DNA of 64,000 nucleotides from Candidatus Gottesmanbacteria bacterium GW2011_GWA2_43_14 (lineage in GTDB: Bacteria; Patescibacteriota; Microgenomatia; 2-02-FULL-39-11), in NCBI GenBank assembly GCA_000999095.1, contig LCFP01000002.1, forward strand, positions 69,736-133,735, in the 5' to 3' direction. The position numbers and the translations under genes were made by a program. The notes beneath the pieces are model-generated. The model was not told where the DNA came from. It was given only the letters and a program-made list of their open reading frames with translations, and made no database searches. Position 1 is the stretch's first letter, and every line of letters starts with the position of its first letter. Positions 4,101 to 47,939 of the stretch are shown piece after piece.

Positions 4101-4130
4101 AATTAAATCAGTATAAATCCTTGAGAAAAC

Positions 4131-4159: not shown

Positions 4160-4181
4160 CACAATGAAGAAATTTGAATCC

Positions 4182-4320: not shown

Positions 4321-4328
4321 ATAATTAC

Positions 4329-4979: not shown

Positions 4980-5146
4980 TGTATAATTGACAAAGTTTAA
5001 TCTCAGCGTTTGCATAGAGACTCACCAACTCTAAAGCTGAGCGTTTCTCCCGATTCGAAATCGGGAACAATTAAGAGCCGTTTCTGGAATTGCGATGGAA
5101 CCGTCCGACTTAACATCGGACTCGCAAAAAAAGAACGGTATTTTTT
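4980..5146 (+). promoter_or_regulatory. Putative structured 5' leader of thrS: an extended -10 (TGTATAAT, 4980-4987) followed by a ~150-nt leader with three stem-loops.
   Basis: Three hairpins: CTCAGCG..CGCTGAG (loop ~27 nt), TCCCGATT-CGAA-AATCGGGA, and GTCCGA-CTTAACA-TCGGAC. No T-box consensus (AATTAGGGTGGTACCGCG) was recognised. thrS is classically autoregulated or T-box-regulated in other bacteria. Confidence 0.3.
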
Positions 5147-7027: not shown

Positions 7028-7538
7028 ATATTACCGGATAAATTATCAGATTTCGGCAGCCAATTTAAGACTTTTGGATGAGTCGGGCAAACAAATCGGA
7101 GTCAAGACAAGGGAAGAAGCGTTAAAAATGGCCCAGGCAGAGGGAAAGGATTTGGTCGAAATTGCAGGGAAGGCAAATCCGCCGGTCGTCAGAATTATCG
7201 ACTACAAAAAATTTAAATACCTCGAAGCCAAACGCGAACGGGACGCCAAAAAGAAAACCAAAAACGTCACGGTCAAGGAAATCAGGCTGTCACCCTTTAT
7301 CGGAGAACACGATTTTCAGACCAGGATTAAAAAAGCTGAAGAATTCCTGAAGGAAGGCAACCAGCTGAAAATAAATCTGCCGTTTCGGGGGAGGGAAATT
7401 GTCCATAAAGAGTTCGGTATGGAAACGATGAAAAAGGCTATCCAGGAACTGAAGGAATCAGCCAAAGTCATCAGGGATCCTCACTTTGAAGGAAGGGTAC
7501 TGGTAGCTCAATTAGCACCGGCCAAGGGGTCAATTTAG
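7011..7538 (+). CDS. infC: Translation initiation factor IF-3. The start codon is non-ATG (TTG at 7011; ATA 7038 or ATT 7050 are alternatives) and overlaps the thrS 3' end.
   Basis: RINYQISAANLRLLDESGKQIGV aligns to the IF-3 N-terminal domain (RINGEIRAQEVRL..GEQLGI). The C-terminal domain motifs KEIRLSPFIGEHDFQTRIKKAEEFL are present. IF-3 genes classically use atypical start codons. Confidence 0.85.
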   Translation: MKKSFKYYRINYQISAANLRLLDESGKQIGVKTREEALKMAQAEGKDLVEIAGKANPPVVRIIDYKKFKYLEAKRERDAKKKTKNVTVKEIRLSPFIGEHDFQTRIKKAEEFLKEGNQLKINLPFRGREIVHKEFGMETMKKAIQELKESAKVIRDPHFEGRVLVAQLAPAKGSI

Positions 7539-7548
7539 AATAATTATT

Positions 7549-7743
7549 ATGCCAAAACAAAAAACCAGAAAAACAGTCGCCAAGAGATTTAAAATAACCA
7601 AAACCGGACTTGTTTTACGCGGACACCAGTATGCCAGGCACCGCAAAGCCCATAAGTCCAAAAGGACCATCAGTTCTTACCATGGCACTGTCAGACTTTC
7701 ACATAAAATGGCGGCCAAAATAAAAAAATTATTAAGGGGATAA
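7549..7743 (+). CDS. rpmI: 50S ribosomal protein L35
   Basis: MPKQKTRKTVAKRFKITKTG... is the canonical L35 sequence; length 64 aa. Confidence 0.9.
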   Translation: MPKQKTRKTVAKRFKITKTGLVLRGHQYARHRKAHKSKRTISSYHGTVRLSHKMAAKIKKLLRG

Positions 7744-7747
7744 AAAC

Positions 7748-8095
7748 ATGAGAATTAAAAGAGGCATTACCAGTCATAGGCGGCATAAAAAGCTTTTGGA
7801 GTCGGTTAAAGGGTACCGCATGTCCAAAAGACGATTAATAAAATCAGCTACAGAGGCTCATCTCCACGCGGGAGCTTATGCTTATCAGGGCCGGAAAAAG
7901 AAAAAATCAGATTTCCGGAAATTATGGATTATCAGAATTACTGCTGCCGTCAGAAGCGAAGGAATCTCTTACAGTCAATTCATCCATAAAATGAAATTAA
8001 AGAAAATCTCTTTAGACCGTAAAATTTTAGCTCTGCTGGTCAGGGAAGATCCTGAGACTTTCAAGGCTGTAGTTGACAGGATAAGAAAAAATTGA
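7748..8095 (+). CDS. rplT: 50S ribosomal protein L20
   Basis: MRIKRGITSHRRHKKLL..GYRMSKRRL is the canonical L20 N-terminus; 115 aa. Confidence 0.95.
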   Translation: MRIKRGITSHRRHKKLLESVKGYRMSKRRLIKSATEAHLHAGAYAYQGRKKKKSDFRKLWIIRITAAVRSEGISYSQFIHKMKLKKISLDRKILALLVREDPETFKAVVDRIRKN

Positions 8096-8219
8096 TAATC
8101 TTCAATATTGTGACAGGCCAAACCAACAACTGGTATTATTTTTATTTTACCCCTATACAGTCGGGGCTTGGTTTGATGCTTAGAAAATAACCTAATAACA
8201 ATAAATTATATACAACCAA

Positions 8220-8243
8220 CCCCGAAAGAATCGGGGTTTTTTT
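8220..8243 (+). terminator. Rho-independent terminator (CCCCGA-AAGAA-TCGGGG + T7) ending the thrS-rplT operon. Its T-run abuts the ATG of the DAHP synthase gene.
   Basis: A 6-bp GC stem followed by TTTTTTT (8237-8243), then ATG at 8244. Confidence 0.6.
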
Positions 8244-9257
8244 ATGATTATCGTTTTAAAAAATGATTTAAAGGAAGAAAACAGAAAAACACTCAGGCGT
8301 TTTCTGGTAGATTTGCGGGTGGAAGCAGTTCCTGTAACAACTATCACTCAGTCGCTTTTGGTTGTTGTCGGTAAATGCGGGGAACTGACCCGCGAAGAAA
8401 TCAGGAAACACTCTTCTGTTGCCCGTCTGATCGATGTTGACAGGCCGTACAAGCTGGCCTCGATCTCAAGTCTTAAAACCAAAACAAAATTCAAATTGGG
8501 CGAGAACATCACTATCGGCAACAAAAAAATCGTCATTATGGCGGGTCCCTGTTCGGTTGAATCCAAAGAGCAAATTCTGAATACCGCAGGCGAAATTAAA
8601 AAAACTGGCGCCCACATATTGCGGGGCGGAGCTTACAAACCGAGGACTGCGCCTTACGACTTCCAGGGATTGGGCAAGATTGGCTTGCGCTTCCTGAAAG
8701 ATGCCGCGGATAAGAACAATATGCCCGTTATCACCGAGGTCATGGATATCAGAGATATCGACACGATCGAAAGGTATACCGATGTTTTTCAGGTTGGCAC
8801 CCGCAATATGCAGAATTATCCGCTTCTAAAAGAATTGGGCAAACAGAAAAAGCCGGTCCTTCTAAAGCGCGGCATGTGGTCAACATATAAGGAGCTGCTT
8901 CTGGCGGCCGAATATATTCTGGTGGGAGGCAATGAAAATGTTATTTTATGCGAACGGGGAATCCGGACCCATGTGCCGGAAACCCGTTTTACTCTGGATC
9001 TCAATGCGGTGCCGTACCTGAAACATGAAACCCATTTGCCTGTTTTTGTCGATCCCAGTCATGGTACCGGCCGGGCAAGCTTGGTAAGAGCCATGAGCAG
9101 GGCGGCTGTAGCGGCCGGATGTGACGGGCTTCTTATAGAGGCTCATCTAGATCCCCGGCGTTCAGTCTCCGATGCCGACCAGGCCATATCCATGGTGGAG
9201 CTGGCTAAACTGATAAAAGAAGTCAGACTGGTAGCCAAAGCCGTTGACCGAATATGA
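8244..9257 (+). CDS. aroF: 3-deoxy-7-phosphoheptulonate (DAHP) synthase, type I-beta, with an N-terminal ferredoxin-like/ACT-like regulatory domain (Thermotoga type).
   Basis: Strong block-wise identity to Thermotoga-type DAHPS: MIIVLK..., IMAGPCSVES, LRGGAYKPRTAPYDFQGLG, LLKRGMWST, ILCERGIRT, VDPSHGTGR. Catalytic core of ~250 aa after an ~90-aa N-terminal extension. Confidence 0.88.
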   Translation: MIIVLKNDLKEENRKTLRRFLVDLRVEAVPVTTITQSLLVVVGKCGELTREEIRKHSSVARLIDVDRPYKLASISSLKTKTKFKLGENITIGNKKIVIMAGPCSVESKEQILNTAGEIKKTGAHILRGGAYKPRTAPYDFQGLGKIGLRFLKDAADKNNMPVITEVMDIRDIDTIERYTDVFQVGTRNMQNYPLLKELGKQKKPVLLKRGMWSTYKELLLAAEYILVGGNENVILCERGIRTHVPETRFTLDLNAVPYLKHETHLPVFVDPSHGTGRASLVRAMSRAAVAAGCDGLLIEAHLDPRRSVSDADQAISMVELAKLIKEVRLVAKAVDRI

Positions 9258-10087
9258 AAAAAATAAAGCAAATCTTCTATTTGGGCATAAAGGGATCAAA
9301 CAGCTTTTTGGCGGCAAGCCTTTCGGCTGGAAATAAGGTGAAATTATCCGGTCTGGCCAGTTTTGAAGAAATTTTCAGATCTGTTGAAAAAGAGAGTTCC
9401 GCCGCCGGAATCCTGCCATTGGAAAATTCTCTCAGCGGCAGCATATATGAAATTTATGATTTGCTGACGGATTCAAAAACCTTTATCACAGCTGAAACGG
9501 AAGTCAGGATCAATCATGCCTTGATGCAAAAAGAACGGACCGGTTTGCAAAAAATCCGGTACTGCCTGTCACACCCGGAGGTTTTCCGGCAGTGCCGCCG
9601 CTTTTTTTCGGACAATCCCTCAATTGAAACGGTACCTGTGGCGGATACCGCTTCAGCAGCCAAAATGCTCAAGGAGCTGGGTCCTGATACAGCTTGTGTG
9701 GCCAATCCGGCAGCTGCTGCCGTCAATAATTTGCGGATAAAAAAAGAACATCTTGAGGATAACAGGAATAATTATTCCAGATTCATAACTGTTGGCAGGA
9801 AACTGAAACAGCATGGAAATAAAATCAGTCTGATGTTCAACTTGAAACATGTGCCCGGTAGTCTATATAAAGCGCTGTCACCCTATGCACGGCTCGGATT
9901 AAATCTGACGAAAATCGAATCCAGGCCGATTCCGGGTAGGCTCTGGGAATATTTGTTTTATGTGGATTTTGAGCTTAACAATGGCAAACACGGGTTTGAC
10001 GAGATTATTACGGCCATGAAAATGTTAACAAAAAATTTAAAAGTCTTAGGCAGGTATGACAAATATGACAAAATTAAAAACAGCTGA
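9254..10087 (+). CDS. pheA: Prephenate dehydratase (PDT domain + C-terminal ACT domain)
   Basis: PDT motifs (GIKGSNSFLAA, ILPLENSLSGSIYEIYDLL) and ACT-domain motif ESRPIPGRLWEYLFYVDFE. ATGA start overlaps the upstream stop. Confidence 0.85.
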   Translation: MKKIKQIFYLGIKGSNSFLAASLSAGNKVKLSGLASFEEIFRSVEKESSAAGILPLENSLSGSIYEIYDLLTDSKTFITAETEVRINHALMQKERTGLQKIRYCLSHPEVFRQCRRFFSDNPSIETVPVADTASAAKMLKELGPDTACVANPAAAAVNNLRIKKEHLEDNRNNYSRFITVGRKLKQHGNKISLMFNLKHVPGSLYKALSPYARLGLNLTKIESRPIPGRLWEYLFYVDFELNNGKHGFDEIITAMKMLTKNLKVLGRYDKYDKIKNS

Positions 10088-10334
10088 ACTGCGAAAAGCT
10101 ATTGACCGGCTGGACAGCCGTCTGACCGGCCTGATTCAAAAAAGGATAGAACTGGCGGTCAAAATCGGCCGTCTGAAAAAGGAAAACGGCAAGCCAATCG
10201 AAGACAGAAAAAGGGAAAAACAGGTTCTGAGAAATTGGGAAAGCCGGGCTGTCAAACACGGCCTGGACAAAAGAATGGTCAAAAAAATTGCCCGCCTGTT
10301 GGTTGGGGCAGCCAAAACAAAGGAACAGTCATGA
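10056..10334 (+). CDS. Chorismate mutase (AroQ class, monofunctional)
   Basis: 92 aa, helical. LRKAIDRLDSRLTGLIQKRIELAVKIGRLK...EDRKREKQVL matches AroQ CM helix 1 and the catalytic Arg/Lys/Glu pattern. An alternative ATG lies at 10065. Confidence 0.7.
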   Translation: MTNMTKLKTAELRKAIDRLDSRLTGLIQKRIELAVKIGRLKKENGKPIEDRKREKQVLRNWESRAVKHGLDKRMVKKIARLLVGAAKTKEQS

Positions 10335-11371
10335 ATAAAATAATCATTGGCCAGGGACTATTGCCAGACCTGGACCGGCTGGTAAAGGGAAATCCGTATG
10401 ACGGATATCTTTTACTGACCGACAAACAGGTTTACGGCCTTTATGGAAAAAAAGTTGTCGGCTTATTGTCGAAAATTGCTCCGGTCAGAGTAAGTATTGC
10501 GGACGACGGAGAAAAAGCTAAAGACCTGAAAATATTGCCGGAATTGCTGGCTCCGTTTTTCGAAGGCAAATTGACCAGAAATTTTTGCCTGGTTTCACTC
10601 GGCGGGGGCTCGATTTCAGATATCGGCGGTTTTATCGCCGCCATTCTTTTGCGGGGTATTGCCCATCTCGTGATACCCACTACCTTATTAAGCATGGTTG
10701 ATGCGGCGATAGGCGGCAAAAACGGCCTGAATTTCAAACGCCGAGGCAGAATTTATAAAAACGCTGTCGGTACTTTCCGCCTACCTGATTTGGTCATTTG
10801 CGACATAAACCTGCTTCAGTCTCTTCCTGACAGGGAAGTCAGAAACGGTTTCGGCGAAATTATCAAATACCGACTGGCTTTCGGTAAACCCGAATTGAAC
10901 GGTGTTTCTGCCGCCGATTTTCAACAGCTTTCCAAACAGAAACTAACTTCTCTCATCCGGGAGTGTCAACAAATTAAAATGAAGATCGTTTCCCAAGATC
11001 CCTTGGACACCCGGGGACTCAGGGAAGCTCTGAATTTAGGCCATACTGTCGGTCATGCGGTGGAAGGTCTGTTTCCGGAGAAATTTTCCCATGGAGAAGC
11101 TGTCGCCCTGGGTCTTAGGTCTGCCGCTTTTATGAGTTGGGATAAAGGGCTTATTAATCACCATAAATATAACCAGATTGTTAAAATTATTGAAAAATGC
11201 GGATTGCAGCTAAAAATTCCGCGGGTGAGAACTGCGAAGATTAACGACCTGCTGGATAAAGATAAAAAAGGAGGAACTACGGTCTTGTTAAAAGACCTGG
11301 GTTTTGTAGTGACAAAACAAAAAACCGATCGCAAACTTATTTTAAAGGCAATCAGGGAAATCCAATCATGA
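10331..11371 (+). CDS. aroB: 3-dehydroquinate synthase
   Basis: Glycine-rich NAD-binding motif LGGGSISDIGGF, metal-binding HTVGHAVE and KNAVGTF motifs. The internal ATG at 10331 (ATGA-coupled to the CM stop) is preferred over the extended track ORF starting at 10235. Confidence 0.85.
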   Translation: MNKIIIGQGLLPDLDRLVKGNPYDGYLLLTDKQVYGLYGKKVVGLLSKIAPVRVSIADDGEKAKDLKILPELLAPFFEGKLTRNFCLVSLGGGSISDIGGFIAAILLRGIAHLVIPTTLLSMVDAAIGGKNGLNFKRRGRIYKNAVGTFRLPDLVICDINLLQSLPDREVRNGFGEIIKYRLAFGKPELNGVSAADFQQLSKQKLTSLIRECQQIKMKIVSQDPLDTRGLREALNLGHTVGHAVEGLFPEKFSHGEAVALGLRSAAFMSWDKGLINHHKYNQIVKIIEKCGLQLKIPRVRTAKINDLLDKDKKGGTTVLLKDLGFVVTKQKTDRKLILKAIREIQS

Positions 11372-11808
11372 AAATTTTAGTGATAAACGGACCCAATCTT
11401 AATCTGCTGGGACAAAGAGATCTGAAAATATACGGCCGTATAACTCTGGCACAAATTGAAGCAAAAATTACGAAAATGGCCGATAGGGCGCAAGTTAAGG
11501 TTCGTTTTTTCCAATCCAACCATGAAGGTGGTCTTATAGATTTTATCCAGGAAAATTTCAAAAAAGCAGACGGTATTCTGATCAATCCCGGAGCCTTGAC
11601 GCACTACGGATACAGCCTGCGCGACTGCCTCGAAGACAGCCGTCTTCCAGTTGTTGAAGTCCACCTGTCCAATACCGGGTCCAGGGAAGATTTCAGAAGG
11701 TTTGATGTCTTTGACGGTATCGTGGCGGCAAAAATTCAGGGACTTCGGGAAAAAAGTTATTTTGAAGGCTTTAAAAAATTAATCAAAATCATATCACCCC
11801 GGGGGTGA
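11368..11808 (+). CDS. aroQ: 3-dehydroquinate dehydratase, type II
   Basis: MKILVINGPNLNLLGQRD..IYG, HEGGLIDFIQE, INPGALTHYGYSLRD are canonical type II DHQase motifs. Confidence 0.9.
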   Translation: MKILVINGPNLNLLGQRDLKIYGRITLAQIEAKITKMADRAQVKVRFFQSNHEGGLIDFIQENFKKADGILINPGALTHYGYSLRDCLEDSRLPVVEVHLSNTGSREDFRRFDVFDGIVAAKIQGLREKSYFEGFKKLIKIISPRG

Positions 11809-11843
11809 TATAGCTAGACACCTCCGGGTGGTATTTATAAACT

Positions 11844-13130
11844 ATGAAAGTCATAATAACTCCATCGAAAATTTCGGGTACAGTTTCGGCGCCGTCGTCC
11901 AAATCATTAAGCCATCGTGCTTTGATTACGGCCTCACTGTCAGACGGAATATCAGAAATCGACAATCTGTCTGATTGCCGGGATGTGCTTTTGACGCTTG
12001 CCGGTTTGCAATCCCTGGGCGCCGGTATCATCCTTAAAAAAAAGCAGGTGAGGATTTCAACCGGCAGCCTGCTTAAGCCTGACAAACAGGTCCGCTGTAT
12101 TGACTGCGGAGATTCCGGCACTAGCGCCAGGTTTTTAACGGCAGTTGCCACAGTCTCCGGAAAAAAGATTTTAATTGACGGAAGCCGGCGCCTGAGAACA
12201 AGACCCATGGCTGAACTTATCAGGCTTTTGCGCTTAAATGGTGCTCATATTAAAGAAACACATAAAAACGGCCAACTGCCTCTGGAAATATATCCCGCCA
12301 AATTGACCGGCGGCAGTTTCCGGATCAACAGTGATGATTCCTCACAATTTATAAGTGCCATGCTGCTGATTGCCCCCTTAATGGAAAAAGCTCTGAGGCT
12401 AAACATCAATGGTAATCATTCCCGGCCATATATTGATATGACTGTTGAAACCATGGAGAAGTTCGGACTCAAAATCAAAACTCTGAAAAATAATTTGTCT
12501 GTTTCTGAAAACCAGCATTACCGGGCAAGAAAATTAACTCTGGAAGGGGATTATTCTGCCGCTGCATATTTTTTTGCTGCTGCCATGATGACACAATCCA
12601 CAGTGACGGTAAAGAATTTAAAAACCGCTTCTCTGCAGGCTGACAGGAGATTTTTATCAGTCGCTTCTGAAATGGGTGCCCATGTCAGAATTAAAAATAA
12701 GGGTACTGTTGAAATTTCAGGAAAAGAGAAAAAATATAGGGGTTTGAAAATTAATCTGGGCCAAAGCCCTGACCTGGTTCCGGTTGTGGCTGTTTTAGCG
12801 GGAAATACAACAGGCCCGATTGAAATTTATGACATCGCCCACCTAAGGCACAAAGAATCAGACCGGATAAAGTCACTGACTCACAATCTGACTATGATGG
12901 GTCTCAAGGTCAATACATCCGAAAGCAAATTAAAGGTCTTTCCGGGTTTATTACAGGCAGCCAGAATCGATGCCTTTGACGATCACCGCATCTGCATGGC
13001 ATTCACTGTGGCAGCTTTGGCAGCCGGCGGACAGACTGTAATTAAGGGAGCTGAATCGGTAAACAAATCGTATCCCGGATTTTTCGCGGATTTACTGAAA
13101 CTCGGAGCCAAAGTGAGGTTATCATCATGA
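11844..13130 (+). CDS. aroA: 3-phosphoshikimate 1-carboxyvinyltransferase (EPSP synthase)
   Basis: PSSKSLSHRALITASL, DCGDSGTSARFL, RPM..L...L motifs; 428 aa. Confidence 0.9.
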   Translation: MKVIITPSKISGTVSAPSSKSLSHRALITASLSDGISEIDNLSDCRDVLLTLAGLQSLGAGIILKKKQVRISTGSLLKPDKQVRCIDCGDSGTSARFLTAVATVSGKKILIDGSRRLRTRPMAELIRLLRLNGAHIKETHKNGQLPLEIYPAKLTGGSFRINSDDSSQFISAMLLIAPLMEKALRLNINGNHSRPYIDMTVETMEKFGLKIKTLKNNLSVSENQHYRARKLTLEGDYSAAAYFFAAAMMTQSTVTVKNLKTASLQADRRFLSVASEMGAHVRIKNKGTVEISGKEKKYRGLKINLGQSPDLVPVVAVLAGNTTGPIEIYDIAHLRHKESDRIKSLTHNLTMMGLKVNTSESKLKVFPGLLQAARIDAFDDHRICMAFTVAALAAGGQTVIKGAESVNKSYPGFFADLLKLGAKVRLSS

Positions 13131-13639
13131 ACCTGATCCTGATCGGCATGCGCGGCAGCGGCAAATCGACTGTTGCCAAAATTTTGTCCGAAACACTGAA
13201 CCTGAATCTGATTGATGTTGATAAACTGATCGAATTAAAGGCAAAAAAGAGTGCCTCAGATATAATTAAAACAAACGGTCTTGAATATTTCCGGGACCTT
13301 GAAAGTGAAATTGTTCAGAATCTGCCGGATAAAAATAAAAGCATTATCGCCACTGGCGGCGGAACCGTGGAGAGGGAAATCAATATGCAGGCATTAAAAA
13401 AAGACTCTCTCATTATTTATCTGAGAACAATGCCTGTGACTTCAGCAGGCAGGCTGGCAAACATTTGCGACCGGCCAGTTTTGACGGGTGCCGGCAGCAT
13501 GCGTGAGGATCTGGAGAATTTATACACAATAAGAAAAACTGTCTATGAAAAATGGGCTGACATCATTGTTGAAACAGACGGAAAATCTTTTAAAGAAGTT
13601 GCGGATTCAATATTAAGAGAATTGTTCGAAAAATTATGA
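13127..13639 (+). CDS. aroK: Shikimate kinase
   Basis: Walker A motif LIGMRGSGKSTVAKIL, 170 aa, GGG motif IATGGG. Confidence 0.85.
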   Translation: MNLILIGMRGSGKSTVAKILSETLNLNLIDVDKLIELKAKKSASDIIKTNGLEYFRDLESEIVQNLPDKNKSIIATGGGTVEREINMQALKKDSLIIYLRTMPVTSAGRLANICDRPVLTGAGSMREDLENLYTIRKTVYEKWADIIVETDGKSFKEVADSILRELFEKL

Positions 13640-14442
13640 TCAGTGCCAAAACAAAAGTCTGTTGCATAATCGGCAATCCGGTAGATCATTCACTTTCACC
13701 GCAAATGCATAATGCGGCCTTTAAGGCCTTGAGTCTGGATTACGTTTTCCTGGCTTTCAAGGTTGAAAATGCACTGAAGGCTCTTTCCGGATTCCGCAGC
13801 GTGGGCATGGAAGGTATAGTGGTCACCGTGCCACACAAACAGGCTATCATCAAATCTCTTGACAGCCTGGATGAGGCAGCCCGGAAAATAGGAGCGGTCA
13901 ATGCCATAAAAAACAGCCATGGTATTTTAAAGGGTACCAATACCGACTGGATAGGCGCTGTGAAATCACTGGAAGAAAAAACTATACTTACAGGTAAAAA
14001 AGTAGCACTTCTCGGAGCAGGAGGTGCGGCACGGGCGATTATCTACGGCCTGAAAAAAAAGCAGGCAGAAATAACTCTGTTCAACCGCACGCCTGAAAAA
14101 GCCGAAAGTCTGGCAAAGGAATTCGGTTTAGCCCGAACAGGCAGTCTTGACGATATAAATAAAATAAGGCAAAACGAAATTATTATAAACAGCACTTCAG
14201 TCGGCATGGAAGAAGATAAATCACCCATTCCCGCCGGAGCGGTTACAAATCAGCTGGTTTTTGATATTATCTATACTCCGCACAAGACCAGACTGATCAG
14301 GATTGCCCTGGAAAAGAAATGCCCTGTAGTCTATGGTTATAAAATGGTACTTTTCGGAGGCACGGAAATATTTAAATTTTTTACAGGACTGCAGGCGCCG
14401 CAAAAAATTATGGAAAAAGCGTTATTAAAAAATTTACATTAA
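13636..14442 (+). CDS. aroE: Shikimate dehydrogenase
   Basis: N-terminal GNPVDHSLSPQMHNAAF substrate-binding motif and Rossmann motif LLGAGGAARA. Confidence 0.85.
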   Translation: MISAKTKVCCIIGNPVDHSLSPQMHNAAFKALSLDYVFLAFKVENALKALSGFRSVGMEGIVVTVPHKQAIIKSLDSLDEAARKIGAVNAIKNSHGILKGTNTDWIGAVKSLEEKTILTGKKVALLGAGGAARAIIYGLKKKQAEITLFNRTPEKAESLAKEFGLARTGSLDDINKIRQNEIIINSTSVGMEEDKSPIPAGAVTNQLVFDIIYTPHKTRLIRIALEKKCPVVYGYKMVLFGGTEIFKFFTGLQAPQKIMEKALLKNLH

Positions 14443-14443
14443 T

Positions 14444-15577
14444 ATGTCATTAAGATTTTTAACCGCAGGGGAATCTCACGGACCGGCAATCACAGCCATT
14501 TTGGAAGGCATGCCGGCCGGCCTAAGCCTTGATACTGAAGAAATCCAAAAGGATTTGGATAAAAGAAGAGGCGGATCAGGCCGGGGCGGCCGGGGTTTGA
14601 TTGAAACCGACACTGTCGAAATATTGTCAGGCGTACTTTCAAATCTAACCATCGGCAGTCCCATCACTCTGCAGATAAAAAACCTCGATTTTGCCAATTG
14701 GCAGAATAAAAAATTAGCCGAAATTAAAAATCCCAGGCCCGGACATGCGGATTACGTTGGGTTTCTGAAATACGGGTTTTCCGATATCCGCAATGTCCTG
14801 GAAAGGGCAAGCGCGCGGGAAACTGCCGCCCGGGTAGCTGTCGGAGCCGTCTGCAGGAAGCTTTTAGCTGTTTTCGGCATGGCCATTGCCAGCCACACTA
14901 TTGCCATAGGTAAAGAAAAGTTATTCCGTCGAAATTATACATTTGCTGAAGTTGCTAAAGTCAGCAAAACCGATCCGGATACCCGCTGTATCGATGCACC
15001 GACCTCCGCCAAAATGAAAGCAGCCATACTTGTTGCGCTTAAAACTAAAAATACCCTGGGCGGGGTAGTGGAAATTTTGGCGGTAAATATTCCTCCTGGT
15101 TTGGGCAGTTACGTGCATTATGACCGGAAACTGGACGGTTTGTTTGCTCAATCTCTGATGAGCATACCTTCAGTCAAAGCTGTAGAAATCGGGACCGGCA
15201 TATCTTTAGCCCATGAACCGGGAAGCCTGGTTCACGATGAACTTTTCCTTCATGAAAATAAAATCAGCAGAAGGACTAATAATGCCGGCGGACTGGAGGG
15301 GGGAGTGACCAATGGCGAACAATTGATTCTGCGGGTTTTTCACAAACCGATCTCCACTTTGGGCAATCCCCTGAGAACAGTCAACGTTGAGACCAAAAAG
15401 GCATCTCCGGCCCTTATTGAACGGTCGGACATTTGCGTTGTGCCCCGTGCAGGCATAATTTCCGAATCCATGACTGCTTTTGTCTTAGCTTCCGCATTTT
15501 TGGAAAAATTTGGCGCTGACAGTTTAATTGACATTAAGGAAAGTTATGCGCAATATCTGGGAAGAATTAAAAAATAG
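14444..15577 (+). CDS. aroC: Chorismate synthase
   Basis: MSLRFLTAGESHGPA..., RRGGSGRGGRGLIETD, and the 377-aa length are canonical AroC signatures. Confidence 0.9.
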   Translation: MSLRFLTAGESHGPAITAILEGMPAGLSLDTEEIQKDLDKRRGGSGRGGRGLIETDTVEILSGVLSNLTIGSPITLQIKNLDFANWQNKKLAEIKNPRPGHADYVGFLKYGFSDIRNVLERASARETAARVAVGAVCRKLLAVFGMAIASHTIAIGKEKLFRRNYTFAEVAKVSKTDPDTRCIDAPTSAKMKAAILVALKTKNTLGGVVEILAVNIPPGLGSYVHYDRKLDGLFAQSLMSIPSVKAVEIGTGISLAHEPGSLVHDELFLHENKISRRTNNAGGLEGGVTNGEQLILRVFHKPISTLGNPLRTVNVETKKASPALIERSDICVVPRAGIISESMTAFVLASAFLEKFGADSLIDIKESYAQYLGRIKK

Positions 15578-15591
15578 TTTTACAAACTTTT

Positions 15592-16836
15592 ATGAAGCAG
15601 CATACTCACATTAATAAACATTCCGTACTGGCAACTTCGGCCGGGTATCGGGAAGTACCGGAAGCAGCTGAAAGACTGAAAAATACCAGCGTTTCCGTCA
15701 TCAAGGAAATGATGTACCTGGGTGCCATGGAAAAAGCCAAAGGCCGCGACATTGTTTCCCTGGGTGTAGGACTGCCATTTTATCCCGCACCCCAATTTAT
15801 CCATGAAGAAGTTGTTAAGGCTCTTAAATCAAAAAGAGACATCGATAAATATACCCTCCTGACCGGTTTGCCTGTACTTCGCCGGATTATAGCCGCACTT
15901 TCCGCTCAAATGCTGGGATTTGCAGTTACAGATGAAGAAATTCTGGTCACTCCCGGCAGCATGGCCGCTCTTTTTGATTCATTATTGGCTCTGGTTAATC
16001 CCGGAGATGAAGTCATACTTCCCTCTCCTTATTTCTCATCCAATGCAGAGCAGGTTTCACTCGCTTCCGGCAAGGTTGTACCGGTAGCTATGACAATCGA
16101 CGGGGAAAACGGCTACCGCCTGGATGTAGCTGCCATAAAAAAAGCCATAAGTAAAAAAACAAAAGCCATAATTCTCAATAATCCCCAAAATCCGACGGGT
16201 GCCGTCTTTCTCAAGGAAGATCTAATGGAATTGGCCGGAATATTAGCTGACACTTCTGTTTTTGTCATCACCGACGAAGTCTATGATTACCTTTTATTCG
16301 ACAATGCCGAGTACTTCAATATTGCCAAAGTGAAAGAACTCTGGCCGAGAGTTATCCGCTGCGCCTCACTCTCCAAAAAATACGGCATGATGGGCTGGAG
16401 GGTAGGCTACCTTCATACCAACAAAGACCTGCTGATGCAGATTCTGAAAATTCATGATGCCTCAATCGTTTGTGCCCCTCATATTTCCCAGGTCGCTGCC
16501 ATTGCCGCTTTGACCGGACCCCAGAAGGTAGTTGAACATCACCGGACCATGCTTGCCGAAAACCGTGAAGTTATCCTGAAAAGGTTGGATGCGCTTGCCA
16601 ATCTTTTTGATTATGTCAGGCCCCTGGGTACTTATTACGTATTTCCCGAATATAAGTTGAATTTATCCAGTATCGAAATGGCCAAAAAACTGCTATATGA
16701 AGCCGGTGTGGTTACTGTTCCCGGTATCGGTTTCGGCCGGCAGGGTGAGCACCATTTAAGACTGTCATACGGTTCCTCCATTGCTGATATCAATAGGGCT
16801 TTTGACCTCATAGAAAAATGGCTACGAAAAGAATAA
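15592..16836 (+). CDS. Class I/II pyridoxal-phosphate-dependent aminotransferase (aspartate/aromatic aminotransferase-like; probable phenylpyruvate transaminase in this operon context).
   Basis: PLP-lysine motif SLSKKYGMMGWRVGY, N-terminal VISLGVGLPFY, and NPQNPTG motif. Confidence 0.8.
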   Translation: MKQHTHINKHSVLATSAGYREVPEAAERLKNTSVSVIKEMMYLGAMEKAKGRDIVSLGVGLPFYPAPQFIHEEVVKALKSKRDIDKYTLLTGLPVLRRIIAALSAQMLGFAVTDEEILVTPGSMAALFDSLLALVNPGDEVILPSPYFSSNAEQVSLASGKVVPVAMTIDGENGYRLDVAAIKKAISKKTKAIILNNPQNPTGAVFLKEDLMELAGILADTSVFVITDEVYDYLLFDNAEYFNIAKVKELWPRVIRCASLSKKYGMMGWRVGYLHTNKDLLMQILKIHDASIVCAPHISQVAAIAALTGPQKVVEHHRTMLAENREVILKRLDALANLFDYVRPLGTYYVFPEYKLNLSSIEMAKKLLYEAGVVTVPGIGFGRQGEHHLRLSYGSSIADINRAFDLIEKWLRKE

Positions 16837-16846
16837 ACTGGAATAT

Positions 16847-17899
16847 ATGGACCAAAAACTGCAGCAACTCCGAAACAGTACAATTAAAGAAATATCGGGT
16901 ATAAAATCCCGTGTTGACTTGAACCGCCTTTATTTAAAAATTTTCGGTTCCTCCGGAGAGTTTACCTTACTTCTCAAATCTATCCCTGAATTGCCCAAGG
17001 AAGTCAGGCCGAAAATCGGAAAACTGGCTAATCAGGTGAAAAAGGAACTGGAACAGGCAATTCTGATAAAAGGCCGGGATTTGGAAAAAGGCCGGTTAAC
17101 GGAAAAAATGGATGTTACCTTTCCGGCTGTTTTGCCTCCCCTGGGACATTTGCATATCGTTACCAAGGCGATTGAGGAGATCGTGCTAATTTTTGAGAAA
17201 ATAGGCTTTAACAACAGGCATTACCGGGAAATTGAATGGGACTGGTATGCCTTTGAAAGCCTGAACATGCCGAAAAACCATCCGGCTCGCGATGATTTCG
17301 AGACTTTTTACATTGACGAACCTCCTTCACCTTCATTCGGACAGATGGTCCTGTCACCCCATACTTCCAGCGGACAGGTCAGGGAAATGGAGGCTTTAAA
17401 AAGCCGGCCGCCTGTCAGGATGATCAATATCGCCAAATGTTACCGCCCTAACTGGGATTTGACCCATACACCCATGTTCCATCAGTTTGAAGGGCTGGTC
17501 GTCGATAAGGGGATCAATATTACCCACCTCAAGGGAACCCTTGATTATTTCGCCAGGGAGTTTTTCGGCAGCGAAAGGAAAACCCGCCTGAGACCATTCC
17601 ACTTCCAGTTTACCGAACCCTCATTCGAGGTTGATATAAATTGCGGTATCTGTCTGGGCAAAGGCAAATTGGAAAACGGGGAAAACTGCAGGTTTTGTAA
17701 AAGCGGCTGGCTGGAATTGGGCGGCGCGGGCATGGTGCATCCCGAGGTGCTGAAGGCGGGTAAAATCAACAGCCAGGACTATACAGGATTTGCTTTCGGC
17801 TGGGGTATTGAACGGACTTATATGATGAAATCGGGGACCAGGCTTGATGATATCAGGCTTTTATACGGCAATGATATCAGATTTTTGGAGCAATTCTGA
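16847..17899 (+). CDS. pheS: Phenylalanyl-tRNA synthetase alpha subunit
   Basis: Class II motifs (FEGLVVDKGINITHLKGTL, RLRPFHFQFTEPSFEVD, GWLELGGAGMVHPEVL). Carries a Cys4 insertion (CGICLGKGK...CRFCKSGW). Confidence 0.9.
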   Translation: MDQKLQQLRNSTIKEISGIKSRVDLNRLYLKIFGSSGEFTLLLKSIPELPKEVRPKIGKLANQVKKELEQAILIKGRDLEKGRLTEKMDVTFPAVLPPLGHLHIVTKAIEEIVLIFEKIGFNNRHYREIEWDWYAFESLNMPKNHPARDDFETFYIDEPPSPSFGQMVLSPHTSSGQVREMEALKSRPPVRMINIAKCYRPNWDLTHTPMFHQFEGLVVDKGINITHLKGTLDYFAREFFGSERKTRLRPFHFQFTEPSFEVDINCGICLGKGKLENGENCRFCKSGWLELGGAGMVHPEVLKAGKINSQDYTGFAFGWGIERTYMMKSGTRLDDIRLLYGNDIRFLEQF

Positions 17900-19902
17900 T
17901 GAATATCTTAGTTCCCGATTCATGGCTGAGAGAATATTTGCAAACGGAAGCTACACCCCTTGATATCAAACGCTGCCTGTCGCTTTGCGGCCCGTCTGTG
18001 GAAAAAGTTAATGACATAGATAAAGAGAAGGTTTATGAAATCGAGATTACCACAAACCGGGTCGATATGGCTTCCGTTTACGGAATAGCCCGGGAAGCAT
18101 CGGCCATCCTGCCGCGTTTCGGCTTTACCGCCAAATTAAAACCGCTGCCTTTGCCGGAAAAAATCTCAGCGGCCAACGTGTTACCACTTGATATCAGCGA
18201 CCCCCGGCAGCTTTGCCGCCGCATCCTCGCAATTGTCATGGACAATGTCACTCTGGGGCAATCGCCGGAGTCTGTCAGCAAACGCCTGGAAGATAGCGGT
18301 GTCCGCAGTCTGAACAATGCCGTAGACGTGACAAATTACGTCATGCTCGAACTGGGTCATCCTGTACATGTCTTTGACTACGACCGCATAAAAACAAACC
18401 GCTTTTTGATCAGAACCGCCAAAAAATATGAGCCGATAGTCACTTTGGACGGAAAAAAATATCTCCTTAATGAAAATGACGTCATTATCGACGACGGTAC
18501 GGGCAGAGTCATAGATTTACCGGGAATTATGGGAACGGAAAACAGTGTGGTAGCGGAAAATACCAAAAGGATTATCCTTTTTATCGAATCCAACGATCCG
18601 GCCCGTATCAGAAAATCTTCACTTACCTACGGCATCAGGACCATGGCCGCCGCCATCAACGAGAAATCGCCAGATCCGGAACTGGCCTATCTGGCCCTTG
18701 AACGGGGAATCGTTTTGATGAAAAAGTTATGCGGTGCTGAACCGGCCGGCCAAATTATTGACATTTACCCCGAACGGCTAAAGAAAGTGTCAATATCTGT
18801 TTCACCTGAATTCATCAACAGCCGGTTGGGCAAAGATCTGTCCCGGAAGGAAATAACTTCAATACTTTCCTCCTTAAATTTCGATGTAAGTGAGGATAAT
18901 GATAAATTAATCAAAGTTATACCTCCTTCATACCGAAGTTTCGATGTCAGGCTGGCTGAAGACATTGTTGAAGAAGTAGCCCGCATTTACGGCTACCATA
19001 ATTTGCCTTCGTGCCTTATGGAAGGACAAATCCCCATATCGGGCAGTTCCATAAATTTCATCAGGAAAAATCAAATAAAAAAAATGCTGAAATACTGGGG
19101 CTATACCGAAACCTACAGCTATTCATTTATATCAGATGAGCTGATATCCAAAACAAAACTGGACATTACGGATCATCTGAAAATCTCAAATCCGCTGACG
19201 AATGATTTTGCATATATGCGGATATCTCTCGTTCCTTCAATTTTGGAGGCATATGCTAAAAACCAGGCTCTGAAAAAAGACCTCAAGCTTTTCGAACTAT
19301 CTGCGGTATATCAAAAAAAGAAAAATGATTTACCGGTTGAACCGGAGCGGCTGGTCATTGCCGAAAATGCTGATTTTTACCGTCATAAAGGAACAGTTGA
19401 AGGCGTTTTCCGTGAAATTGGCTTAACGGGTTGGACTGTCAAAATTAGTGCTCCGGAATTTTGGCATCCCGGAAAATCACTAACCTATCATTTGGGTAAA
19501 GATATTCTTGGGTATGCGGGACAATTACACCCTGAAGTCGCTTCTTCCTTCCGGATTAAAGAGGAAGTCTGCCTGGCTGAACTGGATATTGAAATTTTAT
19601 TGAAATTCGCCAGTGACGCCAAAATCTTCAAGAGGATTATTTCGACCCCCGAGGTCATTGAAAACTTTTCCGTATATTTAACACCGGAAATTATGGTCGG
19701 AACGCTGATAAGTGACATCAGAAGGATAAATAAATTTATCAGCCTGGTCAGTCTGACAGAGAAGTATTCTGACAGCATTAATCTGGAAATCCGTTATCGG
19801 CACCCCGAACGCAATCTGGATAAAAAGGAAATCGAGTATATTAGACGACAGATAGAAAATCTTATCAAGAAACAATTCGGACTCAAACTTAAAAATATTT
19901 AA
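17899..19902 (+). CDS. pheT: Phenylalanyl-tRNA synthetase beta subunit
   Basis: B3/B4 and B5 domain motifs (ITTNRVDMASVYGIAREASA), 667 aa, ATGA-coupled to pheS. Confidence 0.85.
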   Translation: MNILVPDSWLREYLQTEATPLDIKRCLSLCGPSVEKVNDIDKEKVYEIEITTNRVDMASVYGIAREASAILPRFGFTAKLKPLPLPEKISAANVLPLDISDPRQLCRRILAIVMDNVTLGQSPESVSKRLEDSGVRSLNNAVDVTNYVMLELGHPVHVFDYDRIKTNRFLIRTAKKYEPIVTLDGKKYLLNENDVIIDDGTGRVIDLPGIMGTENSVVAENTKRIILFIESNDPARIRKSSLTYGIRTMAAAINEKSPDPELAYLALERGIVLMKKLCGAEPAGQIIDIYPERLKKVSISVSPEFINSRLGKDLSRKEITSILSSLNFDVSEDNDKLIKVIPPSYRSFDVRLAEDIVEEVARIYGYHNLPSCLMEGQIPISGSSINFIRKNQIKKMLKYWGYTETYSYSFISDELISKTKLDITDHLKISNPLTNDFAYMRISLVPSILEAYAKNQALKKDLKLFELSAVYQKKKNDLPVEPERLVIAENADFYRHKGTVEGVFREIGLTGWTVKISAPEFWHPGKSLTYHLGKDILGYAGQLHPEVASSFRIKEEVCLAELDIEILLKFASDAKIFKRIISTPEVIENFSVYLTPEIMVGTLISDIRRINKFISLVSLTEKYSDSINLEIRYRHPERNLDKKEIEYIRRQIENLIKKQFGLKLKNI

Positions 19903-19965
19903 GCTTTTGCTTCACCTTCTCTTCGGCTGATTTTATGTTAAAATACAGGCGCTTCTAACTATTTA

Positions 19966-20064
19966 ATGGGTAAAATGTCATTTTCCAAAGGTTTTATTTT
20001 TCAGAAATTAGAACAAAAAACGATAATTTTTGACGGAGAAAACTCATTTCTGCATAAAAGGTAA
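19966..20064 (+). pseudogene. 32-aa ORF equal to the N-terminal third of a PqqD-like protein, ended by a premature stop (probable decayed PqqD-like gene).
   Basis: MGKMSFSKGFIFQKLEQKTIIFDGENSFLHKR aligns closely to residues 13-45 of the PqqD-like protein at 48931..49248 (MKKITVNKGFVSRKLGKKTMIFDGEKSLLI). It lies 20 nt upstream of the HprK-like paralog. Confidence 0.4.
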
Positions 20065-20084
20065 TATCAAATGCTTAAAAATTA

Positions 20085-20885
20085 ATGACGAATAATTGTC
20101 TCTTCTTGAATATCGCCGATTATTACTTCAAAATAAATTTTTTGGAAAATGACCTTAAATTTATTTTTGATAATCTCAAAAAAGAAATTGGCAGTAAATT
20201 TTCAGGATTTATCAGTACCAATATCCCAAAAAAATATCAATTTGAAATAAATATTATTGTAAGTAATAAATTTGATGTTTTTTTTAACCGTAATAAAAAA
20301 GATGTATATATAAAGTTTTACAGATATACATCACCTTATACTGTTGAGACTTACTATCAAATAAGTATCTACCAGTTTCAACTGATTTTAATAGATGGGA
20401 TTTACAGAATTTTGATAAAAAATAAAGCCTTTATATTTCATGCATCGGCCAATCTGATCAACGGAAAGGCAAGTTTATTTTTAGGCGGTGATGGCGCAGG
20501 AAAATCAACAATCATGAAAATTTTAAGAAATAAATTTACGCCTTTGGCCGATGACAGCATGATTATCCGGAAAATTAAGGATAAATATTATGCTTTCCAA
20601 ACTCCTTTTATAGAAAAAGAAACGTGGTTAAAGAGAAAAAAGGGGAAATATCTGCTTGGTAAAATATATTTTATAAATAAAGCTGATTTTTATTCGATTA
20701 AAAAAATCAGCAGTATAGAATCAGCACTTAAAAAAACTATAGAGCTAAATAAGCATTTCAGCATAACTGACAAGGAATATTACCAGCAAGTTAAATCGCA
20801 AATGGAATTTACTTCAGACTTTCCCTACCAGTATAATCTCCATTTCGGACTCAATAAAAAGAAGGTATTATCCTTATTCATTTAA
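20085..20885 (+). CDS. HPr-kinase/phosphorylase-C-domain-like P-loop protein (paralog of 48086..48934)
   Basis: AFIFHASANLINGKASLFLGGDGAGKSTIMKIL...PLADDSMII matches the Hpr_kinase_C Walker-A region (H..v..G.G.L..G.SG.GKS...L....LvADD) and aligns to the second copy in the window. A+T-rich codon usage. Confidence 0.55.
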   Translation: MTNNCLFLNIADYYFKINFLENDLKFIFDNLKKEIGSKFSGFISTNIPKKYQFEINIIVSNKFDVFFNRNKKDVYIKFYRYTSPYTVETYYQISIYQFQLILIDGIYRILIKNKAFIFHASANLINGKASLFLGGDGAGKSTIMKILRNKFTPLADDSMIIRKIKDKYYAFQTPFIEKETWLKRKKGKYLLGKIYFINKADFYSIKKISSIESALKKTIELNKHFSITDKEYYQQVKSQMEFTSDFPYQYNLHFGLNKKKVLSLFI

Positions 20886-22077
20886 AATAACGACTGACGA
20901 CAAATTCGGGACTGGTTTTTAACGGAAGGAATGGTAAATATTTTTTTTCAGAATAACCTGCTTTTAAACTCTTCTTCATGATCAGAATGCCGTTGCTGAT
21001 TTTTTTTATCTTTAATCTTTGAAAATATTTTACTAAATTCTCAGTTTGTTGCAGATATATTTTATAATCGGCTTTTAACAAATCATGGCTGATCAGCCAT
21101 GAATAATGATACGGGTCACTTTCACTGAGTATTAAATATAGAATTTTATATTTTTTTTTATTTTGGCCTAACCATCTATCGGCTGATTTTCTAAATTCAT
21201 CTTGTTCTGATTCATGGATAGTACAATTTACATGGCTAAATCCATCATCTGAAAGATGATCGGGAATGCTGCTTATAATCTTTTCCAAAATGTTTATACC
21301 TGGTTTTTGAGATAAGGAAGATATATCACCATTTTCAAGTATTGATTTTATACTGGGGGGATTGGCAACTATTAAATCATATTTTTCGCCGGCTGCAGAT
21401 TCGAATAAATTACTTAATTTGAATTCAATATTTCCTGCTTGATTTAACCGGAAATTAAAATTGCTATAGTTTATTGCCCGAGGATTAATATCAACGGCTG
21501 CAACTTTTTGAGAAATTAGGGAAGATATAATTGCATGAAAACCGCACCCTGTCCCCAAATCAAATACTGATCTGTATTTTTTTTTAACTACGGATTCCCA
21601 GAGATTGATAGAATCATGACTGATGGGGTAAACTGTTTCCTTAAAGGAATATAAAACAAGTTTATCTTCACTGTAGTCAAATCTGAACAAAAAATCGCAG
21701 GTAAAAAAAAGATTGTGATAAGGCAAAATTGAGACTTTGGACTGTATCGCGTTTCCGTATGTTTCCTCTAAGATACTGAGATGTATGTACCTTTTAATCA
21801 TACTGACCGGAATAATTGCGGCTAAATCTTTAATTAATACTTTATTTCCTAAAAAAAATAAATAAAAGCCGATTCCCTGAAATTTCAGGTGTCTGACTTT
21901 CTGGATTAAAACTGCATATTCCGCAAATGATCTTCTGTATGGATCTATATTAGATTGACGGAAGTCTGAAGTAGTATAACCAAGTTGATGAAATAAATTC
22001 CTTAGGGAATCATAGTCCTGCCGCTTAAACAGATGAAGTGGAAGGGTAGTATCAGGAACAATTCTGTCGATTACCAT
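20878..22077 (-). CDS. Class I SAM-dependent methyltransferase, HemK/PrmC-like (NPPS motif), with an ~150-aa N-terminal extension.
   Basis: SAM motif I VFDLGTGCGFHAI, AAVDINPRAI, and catalytic motif IVANPPS (NPPY-type). Confidence 0.6.
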   Translation of the reverse strand: MVIDRIVPDTTLPLHLFKRQDYDSLRNLFHQLGYTTSDFRQSNIDPYRRSFAEYAVLIQKVRHLKFQGIGFYLFFLGNKVLIKDLAAIIPVSMIKRYIHLSILEETYGNAIQSKVSILPYHNLFFTCDFLFRFDYSEDKLVLYSFKETVYPISHDSINLWESVVKKKYRSVFDLGTGCGFHAIISSLISQKVAAVDINPRAINYSNFNFRLNQAGNIEFKLSNLFESAAGEKYDLIVANPPSIKSILENGDISSLSQKPGINILEKIISSIPDHLSDDGFSHVNCTIHESEQDEFRKSADRWLGQNKKKYKILYLILSESDPYHYSWLISHDLLKADYKIYLQQTENLVKYFQRLKIKKISNGILIMKKSLKAGYSEKKYLPFLPLKTSPEFVVSRYFK

Positions 22078-22100
22078 TTAAGGCTGTACTCCCGGGAAAA

Positions 22101-22595: not shown

Positions 22596-22678
22596 AACAG
22601 GGTAATTTTATTAATCTAATTTATAATACCGAAATTAGAGCTTCTATGTCAATCATTTGCATCCGCCCGGCAAATACA

Positions 22679-23701: not shown

Positions 23702-23826
23702 TTCCGGCTTGTTTTTTACCTTATGTATGATATTGTCTGAATTAATCTTATTGAAAGAGATTTTTTATAAGTAATTTTTTAACCCGATCTTCGGCATTAT
23801 CTTAACATATGTTTAATGATTGACTT

Positions 23827-47325: not shown

Positions 47326-47373
47326 TTGACGGGCAATGATTTATAGCCTATTCTGAGAGTAGTATGTATTAAT

Positions 47374-47934: not shown

Positions 47935-47939
47935 CCCAT

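Follow-up and report, generated by a model that had tools for sequence, protein, structure and literature searches.

A pheST operon enclosing a complete shikimate and phenylalanine pathway behind a probable leader-peptide attenuator in a Gottesmanbacteria genome

Analysis of a 64,000-nucleotide (nt) stretch of the genome of Candidatus Gottesmanbacteria bacterium GW2011_GWA2_43_14 (contig LCFP01000002.1), hereafter the window, revealed twelve genes on the + strand at positions 8244-19902 that encode the shikimate pathway, the phenylalanine branch and both subunits of phenylalanyl-tRNA synthetase (PheRS). We propose, with a probability of about 75%, that this region is a pheST operon in which ten biosynthetic genes have been inserted between a regulatory leader and pheS, and that it is governed by leader-peptide attenuation. 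One short leader peptide with many Phe, Tyr and Trp codons, coupled to a switch that stops transcription, seems to govern the pathway and the PheRS genes alike. The 148-nt gap between rplT and the DAHP synthase (DAHPS) gene holds a promoter, a leader open reading frame (ORF) and a four-segment attenuator, and all three recur in about 20 Gottesmanbacteria loci. Individual loci are cited below by L numbers. In the window, the leader comprises the following features.

8073-8101, + strand: sigma-70-type promoter, TTGACA-N14-TGnTAnnnT, overlapping the end of rplT
8110-8190, + strand: leader ORF with a GTG start, 26 codons and a TAA stop, translated as (M)TGQTNNWYYFYFTPIQSGLGLMLRK up to the stop and beginning MTGQTNNWYYFYFTPIQ...
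8131-8148, + strand: regulatory codons TGG TAT TAT TTT TAT TTT (W Y Y F Y F), the window's sole stretch of six consecutive aromatic residues
8149-8154, + strand: segment 1 (ACCCCT), the weak anti-antiterminator partner of segment 2
8160-8174, + strand: segment 2 (GTCGGGGCTTGGTTT), within the leader ORF, the 5' strand of the antiterminator
8213-8225, + strand: segment 3 (CAACCAACCCCGA), pairing with segment 2 in the antiterminator and with segment 4 in the terminator
8218-8243, + strand: intrinsic terminator AACCCCGA-AAGAA-TCGGGGTT followed by seven T residues, abutting the DAHPS ATG (8244)

The leader ORF is conserved in 18 distinct Gottesmanbacteria leaders, each with an aromatic run (for example MTGQTKVWYYFYFTP..., MKEPKQTWFFYFYFKS..., MIEKSQNWYFAFYFTP..., MSKLRQTNNFYYFYFTAG..., MKLHAQVNWFYFYFKLL... 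and MNKQSFWFYFYFTLL...), and in nearly all of them an F-Y-F core lies directly 5' of the C-rich segment 1. Across about 21 divergent loci the ORF, the aromatic run, the reading frame and the stop position are kept while the nucleotides around them vary. The uniqueness of WYYFYF in the window holds across all six frames, and its composition of three Tyr, two Phe and one Trp codons argues that regulation is not Phe-specific. The start codon (GTG in the window, ATG at the same position in L083) lies 8 nt after the -10 element in the window and 7-14 nt after it across the clade, and no Shine-Dalgarno sequence is visible, from which we infer that the leader mRNA is probably leaderless or nearly so. 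A covariance model built on the leaders gave exactly one match per clade locus, always 5' of DAHPS, and no match in 33 outgroup loci.

The promoter consists of a -35 element TTGACA (8073-8078), a 17-nt spacer and a -10 element TAATCT (8096-8101), with an extended -10 TG at 8093-8094 that falls within the rplT stop codon TGA. The pattern TTGACA-N14-TGnTAnnnT occurs once in the window against 0.04 matches expected. It occupies the same place in 22 clade loci, compared with five scattered matches in 80 outgroup loci, which are DAHPS loci of other phyla with at most 55% identity among the matches listed by a profile search of genome contigs and which served as controls only. The pattern is kept in L098, where the rplT stop codon sits elsewhere, and in L101, where the stop codon is likewise displaced, the -35 element, spacing and TGn are retained with a -10 of TATAAA. 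The Asp codon within the -35 element is GAC in 17 of 17 loci, whereas GAC makes up 42% of Asp codons overall. A reading that leaves no space for a dedicated promoter and has the genes expressed by rplT read-through alone was rejected, given the TTGACA-N17-TAnnnT conserved in the 3' end of rplT. A promoter-like match at 8110-8139 proved to be an artefact, its apparent -10 (TATTAT) being the two Tyr codons of the leader.

Segments 2 (GGGG..TTGGTT) and 3 (AACCAA..CCCC) are complementary, and the terminator's 5' arm forms part of segment 3. The duplex of the two (2:3) has a calculated energy of -18.2 kcal/mol in the window against -6.4 for shuffled sequences (z = -4.7), and z ranges from -2.2 to -4.7 in 15 of 17 leaders. 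Across leaders this duplex reaches -14 to -20 kcal/mol, compared with -11 to -14.5 kcal/mol for the terminator hairpin. The terminator, an 8-bp stem with five G-C pairs (-12.2 kcal/mol in the window), is present in all relatives and is the best, and the only good, terminator-like site on the + strand between 4000 and 21500. The segment cores covary across all four segments, being CCCC/GGGG in most loci and CCTCC/GGAGG in L094, L098, L101, L106 and L107. The distance from the last aromatic codon to the start of segment 1 is 0 ± 2 nt for 15 of the 17 leaders (+1 and +3 nt in the others), and the duplex of segment 1 with segment 2 is -8.3 kcal/mol in the window and 4-7 bp with -7 to -12 kcal/mol across leaders. 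A further stretch, 8116-8125 (GCCAAACCAA, conserved K-Q-T codons in relatives), is complementary to 8168-8176 (TTGGTTTG, the 3' half of segment 2); in the minimum free energy (MFE) structure of the free RNA these stretches are paired, which may extend the anti-antiterminator.

Folding of transcripts cut before segment 4 gave the outcomes expected of a switch that responds to the position of the ribosome. A ribosome stalled on the last aromatic codon left the terminator's 5' arm sequestered in 19 of 21 leaders, and one placed on the stop codon left it free in 18 of 21; in these models the outcome seems to hinge on whether the ribosome occupies segment 2. The cut-transcript folds, together with duplex energies compared with shuffles, replaced MFE folding of full-length leaders, which had given a mixed result.

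We propose that transcription would start at the promoter in the last rplT codons, possibly augmented by read-through from rplT, and that the transcript would at once encode the 26-codon leader with its W-Y-Y-F-Y-F run. When charged tRNA-Phe or tRNA-Tyr (possibly also tRNA-Trp) is scarce, the ribosome would stall on the last aromatic codons and cover segment 1, leaving segment 2 free to pair with segment 3; no terminator would form, and RNA polymerase would enter the biosynthetic genes and pheST. When these tRNAs are charged, the ribosome would reach the stop codon at 8188 and occupy segment 2, the terminator would form, and RNA polymerase would stop a single base short of the DAHPS start codon. 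The 3' strand of the terminator stem reads GGGG at 8233-8236 (GGAGG in several relatives); it lies 7 nt 5' of the DAHPS ATG in the window, and 7-8 nt 5' of it wherever no extra element intervenes, and segment 4 may double as the DAHPS ribosome-binding site. If segment 4 acts as a Shine-Dalgarno sequence, the hairpin would mask translation initiation as well.

In several relatives the T-run of the attenuator and the DAHPS start are separated by an additional element of 70-270 nt (for example GATGGCTGCTTACTGAACGAAGTGAAGTTAGCAG...), with stem-loops that look partly conserved; the element is absent from the window, and Rfam gives nothing on the relatives' copies, which lie at the following positions.

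Extra element: L084 9918-10000; L089 5514-5593; L090 2579-2662; L096 1308-1407; L097 about 5800-6000; L098 458-625

The position of the array points to insertion into an existing operon. In the window, the order thrS-infC-rpmI-rplT-pheS-pheT is kept on one strand with ten genes intercalated between rplT and pheS, comprising the seven shikimate steps, chorismate mutase, prephenate dehydratase and an aminotransferase. The genes preceding the array are as follows.

5147-7027, + strand: thrS, threonyl-tRNA synthetase (Pfam tRNA_SAD, tRNA-synt_2b, HGTP_anticodon)
7011-7538, + strand: infC, IF-3 (Pfam IF3_N, IF3_C)
7549-7743, + strand: rpmI, ribosomal protein L35, translated as MPKQKTRKTVAKRF...; Ribosomal_L35p is called there in relatives
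7748-8095, + strand: rplT, ribosomal protein L20 (Pfam Ribosomal_L20), with a protein identical to Candidatus Gottesmanbacteria L20

The thrS gene heads this block, in an identical position in all related loci, and thrS-infC-rpmI-rplT-DAHPS...pheS-pheT recurs in every clade locus having enough flank (DAHPS identity 63-86%, each locus seen with 10 kb on either side of the match). None of the 80 outgroup DAHPS loci among the matches listed has rplT beside DAHPS or pheS beside aro genes; some of them hold near-complete aromatic clusters in different gene orders. The original prediction had judged the genome to be of the Candidate Phyla Radiation (CPR) type and its trigger factor to lack a PPIase domain; both assessments hold, the window proteins being identical to proteins of a Candidatus Gottesmanbacteria metagenome-assembled genome (MAG) and the trigger factor having N and C domains only.

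Three sister Microgenomates loci (L110-L112, one named Levybacteria) have the same neighbourhood without the aro genes, in the order trigger factor, DUF5660, thrS, infC, rpmI, rplT, small ORF, pheS, pheT. All three carry a leader after rplT, namely MNRIFYFTYFTSQAGR, MKALITFFGFWYFFTPCP... (also written MKALITFFGFWYFFTP...) and MNNKLFYFFFFTSQTGR, with a GCCTCCC...GGGAGG terminator 3' of each. The occurrence of the same device in three loci that lack aro genes indicates that it is the ancestral pheST attenuator of this part of Microgenomates, and the aromatic pathway would have been inserted 3' of it in Gottesmanbacteria. The array had been taken for a free-standing twelve-gene supra-operon and a plain terminator-free unit. 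Sister synteny recasts it as an insertion into the universal rplT-pheST junction, and the conserved promoter, aromatic leader peptide and terminator/antiterminator in front of it point to a regulated unit. The small ORF of the sister loci (60-96 amino acids (aa), no Pfam match; L110 6593-6775, L111 6784-6972, L112 6498-6788) occupies the slot between attenuator and pheS that the aromatic genes hold in Gottesmanbacteria.

The identity of each of the twelve genes holds by Pfam and NCBIfam, and all lie on the + strand in the tightly packed array, as had been predicted.

8244-9257, + strand: DAHP synthase, type I-beta (NF006421, 422 bits, cut-off 335)
9254-10087, + strand: prephenate dehydratase with a C-terminal ACT domain (Pfam PDT; full-length match to 2QMX)
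10056-10334, + strand: AroQ-type chorismate mutase, monofunctional, 92 aa (Pfam CM_2; TIGR01791, 68.8 bits, above cut-off)
10331-11371, + strand: aroB, 3-dehydroquinate synthase (Pfam DHQ_synthase and DHQS_C)
11368-11808, + strand: aroQ, type II 3-dehydroquinate dehydratase (Pfam and NCBIfam)
11844-13130, + strand: aroA, EPSP synthase (TIGR01356, 392 bits)
13127-13639, + strand: aroK, shikimate kinase (Pfam SKI)
13636-14442, + strand: aroE, shikimate dehydrogenase (NF001319, 261 bits)
14444-15577, + strand: aroC, chorismate synthase (NF003793, 407 bits)
15592-16836, + strand: class I aminotransferase, aspartate aminotransferase I-beta-like (Pfam Aminotran_1_2)
16847-17899, + strand: pheS, PheRS alpha subunit (Pfam tRNA-synt_2d, Phe_tRNA-synt_N)
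17899-19902, + strand: pheT, PheRS beta subunit (Pfam B3_4, B5, tRNA_synthFbeta)

Residues 1-333 of DAHPS align over the full length to residues 1-332 of the Thermotoga maritima enzyme (1RZM/3PG9), an alignment that takes in the N-terminal ferredoxin-like, ACT-like regulatory domain and bears out the domain assignment made at the outset. The prephenate dehydratase has an ACT domain of its own, in which an ESRP motif can be read. These two domains probably add allosteric feedback control to the putative attenuation of the operon. The aminotransferase is probably an aromatic/aspartate or a prephenate aminotransferase: its nearest solved structures are the Pyrococcus horikoshii aromatic aminotransferase 1DJU and the aspartate aminotransferase 1GD9, and the prephenate aminotransferases 6F35 and 5WMH match it likewise. 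This double kinship fits the phenylpyruvate and the arogenate routes alike.

From DAHPS to pheT the junctions measure -4, -32, -4, -4, +35, -4, -4, +1, +14, +10 and -1 nt, so that each is an overlap or a gap of at most 35 nt. These values use ATG 10331 as the start of aroB, the choice of the gene callers, which overlaps the chorismate mutase stop codon and replaced the TTG at 10235 given by a mechanical ORF list. The array had been described as mostly ATGA-coupled; tight coupling stands, with ATGA overlaps at five of the 11 junctions. The accompanying claim that internal terminators are absent is borne out within the array, where a + strand scan of 4000-21500 found no strong intrinsic terminator, but it had passed over the strong terminator at 8218-8243 directly upstream. 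A strong hairpin (-23.9 kcal/mol) in the aroQ-aroA spacer, at 11791-11834, takes in the aroQ stop codon and lacks a T-run. L083, the closest relative, has overlapping aroQ and aroA genes and no such hairpin; in the window the hairpin may serve RNA processing or stability.

Several observations weigh against attenuation as proposed here. The -10 element of the window (TAATCT) fits the consensus at three of six positions, and the leader start codon is GTG. The Rfam Phe_leader model (RF01859) scores 19.8 bits on window positions 8118-8245 (E = 1.5), below its gathering score of 55. Covariation was judged sequence by sequence, since loop and spacer lengths vary and both the MAFFT and the covariance-model alignments fell out of structural register. 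Cut transcripts with no ribosome placed on them form the antiterminator as well, in 18 of 21 leaders; the 1:2 hairpin is weak, and the scheme falls short of a complete four-state switch of the trp type. With a mask for the stalled ribosome applied, equilibrium folds of the full-length leaders kept the terminator in 11 of 17, the window included, so that the argument for attenuation depends on co-transcriptional order. Two further points concern pheST itself. A TAnnnT hexamer lies 6-7 nt 5' of the pheS ATG in six of seven loci whose surrounding sequence differs. PheRS is essential, which implies either that termination is incomplete or that pheST has another promoter.

These last points raise the possibility of two units, in which the attenuator mainly controls the ten biosynthetic genes and pheST is also transcribed from an internal promoter as a leaderless message providing constitutive PheRS. 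Such an arrangement is possible, and we hold it to be somewhat doubtful. It is compatible with the attenuated pheST operon proposed above but would split the twelve-gene operon. In the window the candidate promoter, TAGAAA-17-TAAACT (16811-16839), ends 7 nt before the pheS ATG and may provide additional basal expression of pheST from a leaderless pheS mRNA, a layout that the leader peptide itself seems to share. On the other hand, the -35 elements are poor (the window sequence matches at eight of 12 positions), TAnnnT is common by chance in AT-rich spacers, and in Escherichia coli basal read-through of the attenuator satisfies the need for pheST.

Alternatively, the array could be a constitutive, single-transcript operon purely for making and charging phenylalanine, in an organism that makes Phe and neither Tyr nor Trp. 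The tightly coupled junctions, the scan that found no strong internal terminators and the co-location of the PheRS genes with the biosynthetic genes are all in keeping with this, as is the gene content of the window. As originally reported, neither tyrA nor trp genes were found there (Pfam search of all ORFs of at least 100 aa), and tblastn with TyrA from five relatives found no tyrA remnant. That search covered 64 kb of the genome, however, and the conserved leader and terminator/antiterminator ahead of the array imply conditional expression, with three Tyr codons and one Trp codon beside the two for Phe. In the loci compared, tyrA (prephenate dehydrogenase) lies between chorismate mutase and aroB in L084, L092, L095, L098, L099, L106, L107, L108 and L109, and is missing from the cluster in the window, L083, L088 and L097. 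At 12130-12456, L085 retains an N-terminal tyrA remnant of 108 aa that includes the GxGxxG Rossmann motif, and the next 120 nt are non-coding. Judged from its sequence, this remnant is tyrA decay in progress, parallel to the full loss in the window lineage. Since most relatives have tyrA, the ancestral insert would have served both Phe and Tyr, and the Phe-only content of the window would reflect secondary, recent loss. We therefore regard an operon dedicated to phenylalanine, as had been suggested, as a derived state, and a constitutive Phe-only operon as unlikely. The Tyr codons of the window leader would then mean either that a gene beyond the window provides for Tyr synthesis or that Tyr sensing is a relic. 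The aminotransferase gene is missing in L106 and L108, and trp genes were not seen in the clade loci either, within the flanks compared.

Much less probable is that the hairpin at 8218-8243 is the ordinary terminator of infC-rpmI-rplT, that the aromatic ORF is a chance, non-functional one and that the aro genes are free of any translation-coupled switch. A canonical intrinsic terminator 3' of rplT would be expected on this account, and the equilibrium folds described above agree with it. It does not account for the conservation of the ORF in the divergent loci, for 2:3 complementarity far beyond that of shuffles, or for a conserved promoter between the rplT coding end and the terminator, which a plain terminator would not need. 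Nor does it account for matches to RF01859 in relatives: L094 scores 60 bits against the gathering score, L111, L098, L112 and L097 have sub-threshold matches with E = 2e-4 to 7e-3, and most relatives score 28-45 bits. That the leader is instead a T-box, another riboswitch or a protein-binding site is hardly credible: pheST is under T-box control in Firmicutes (PMC1262725) and several relatives have the extra nucleotides after the terminator, but no T-box or riboswitch match appears in 7500-8400 at any threshold (T-box to E = 10) or in the relatives' leaders, and no T-box at the gathering threshold across the whole window, the roughly 100 nt from start codon to terminator are too short for a T-box, and the conserved feature is a translated aromatic run.

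The attenuated pheST operon suggests a tentative history, to which we give slightly less than an even chance. Microgenomates would ancestrally control PheRS through a leaderless, Phe-rich leader attenuator after rplT, into which an ancestor of Gottesmanbacteria slotted a complete Phe and Tyr pathway, and the leader would have shifted to mixed Phe/Tyr/Trp sensing. Leader codons in the clade containing the aro genes number 52 for Phe, 42 for Tyr and 13 for Trp, compared with 13, 4 and 1 in the sisters; this enrichment in Tyr and Trp is a trend only (Fisher p = 0.077, three sister loci). If the history is correct, this would be the first ribosome-mediated attenuation in CPR bacteria and a rare case in which an amino acid is made and charged under the control of a single charged-tRNA sensor.

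Elsewhere in the window, the 20001-24000 stretch right after pheT has a GC content of 0.30-0.34 compared with about 0.44 in its flanks. It encodes an ORF without a Pfam match, a PrmA-like methyltransferase, Peptidase_S74 (endosialidase-chaperone), GDSL-like and Laminin_G_3 proteins, and is possibly a surface island that is variable or was acquired horizontally. The region 46048-53308 encodes an NTP_transf_5 nucleotidyltransferase, a PqqD-like protein (105 aa), an asparagine-synthase-like protein (633 aa), Wzy_C membrane proteins and several ORFs without Pfam matches; the PqqD-like and asparagine-synthase-like pair presumably resembles the maturation genes of lasso peptides and other ribosomally synthesized and post-translationally modified peptides (RiPPs). 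Two leucine-rich-repeat proteins (280 and 286 aa) encoded side by side at 53259-55016 are unusual and are possibly host- or partner-interaction proteins.

The mechanism proposed for the array is most likely classical leader-peptide attenuation, a known kind that leaves the textbook unchanged, and classical attenuators are reported at pheST in gamma-proteobacteria (PMC1262725). What is new is the CPR setting, the placing of a whole pathway and its aminoacyl-tRNA synthetase under what we read as one switch, and the mixed aromatic leader. A full-text literature search found no paper linking Gottesmanbacteria or CPR bacteria to the shikimate pathway or to leader-peptide attenuation. Accounts of CPR/Patescibacteria generally depict them as incapable of amino-acid synthesis, and almost nothing is known of how they regulate their genes. 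The findings thus add a clade-wide complete aromatic pathway in a CPR group and a concrete candidate regulatory device (promoter, leader and attenuator) in organisms that are not culturable alone. They also make an evolutionary route visible, from sisters with an empty attenuator-pheST junction, through Gottesmanbacteria in which it is filled, to single lineages losing tyrA or the aminotransferase. If our reading is right, Gottesmanbacteria would be aromatic amino-acid prototrophs, unlike typical CPR bacteria, with lineages such as that of the window secondarily turning into Tyr auxotrophs.

Clusters with type I-beta DAHPS in other phyla (L013, L020, L033, L036, L008, L009 and L014) share with the window a near-complete shikimate and Phe/Tyr array, for example DAHPS-aroB-PDT-aroE-aroA-aroK-aroC in Syntrophia-like MAGs and PDT-aminotransferase-DAHPS-tyrA-aroA in Nitrospirota and Endomicrobia (PDT, prephenate dehydratase). 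They differ in gene order and have neither rplT/pheST flanks nor a match to the leader covariance model. The Bacillus subtilis aromatic supraoperon, aroFBH-trpEDCFBA-hisC-tyrA-aroE, likewise joins many aromatic genes and an aminotransferase in one co-directional array, with a nested trp operon and TRAP control. In contrast, the array in the window has no nested trp operon and no TRAP-type control, it is tied to rplT and pheST, and its pathway is complete from DAHP to Phe.

The enterobacterial pheA leader (RF01859, pheL) has in common with the window a Phe-rich ORF whose last residues, ...F-T-(F)-P, lie over a C-rich segment 1, together with alternative hairpins and a terminator followed by a Phe biosynthetic gene. 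The window leader differs in having Tyr and Trp among the regulatory codons, and it stands before a twelve-gene operon that includes an aminoacyl-tRNA synthetase instead of pheA alone. A further related system is the E. coli thrS-infC-rpmI-rplT-pheM-pheST cluster, in which a promoter and a short Phe-rich leader ORF follow rplT, a terminator comes next, and PheRS is controlled by charged tRNA. Gene order, a promoter and short leader ORF right after rplT, and a terminator before the first structural gene are common to both, and the equivalence of pheM to the window leader is positional. Unlike the E. coli cluster, the window belongs to a CPR host, has no terminator between rplT and the promoter, and carries a leader mRNA that is apparently leaderless, a mixed Phe/Tyr/Trp leader peptide and ten biosynthetic genes between the attenuator and pheS.

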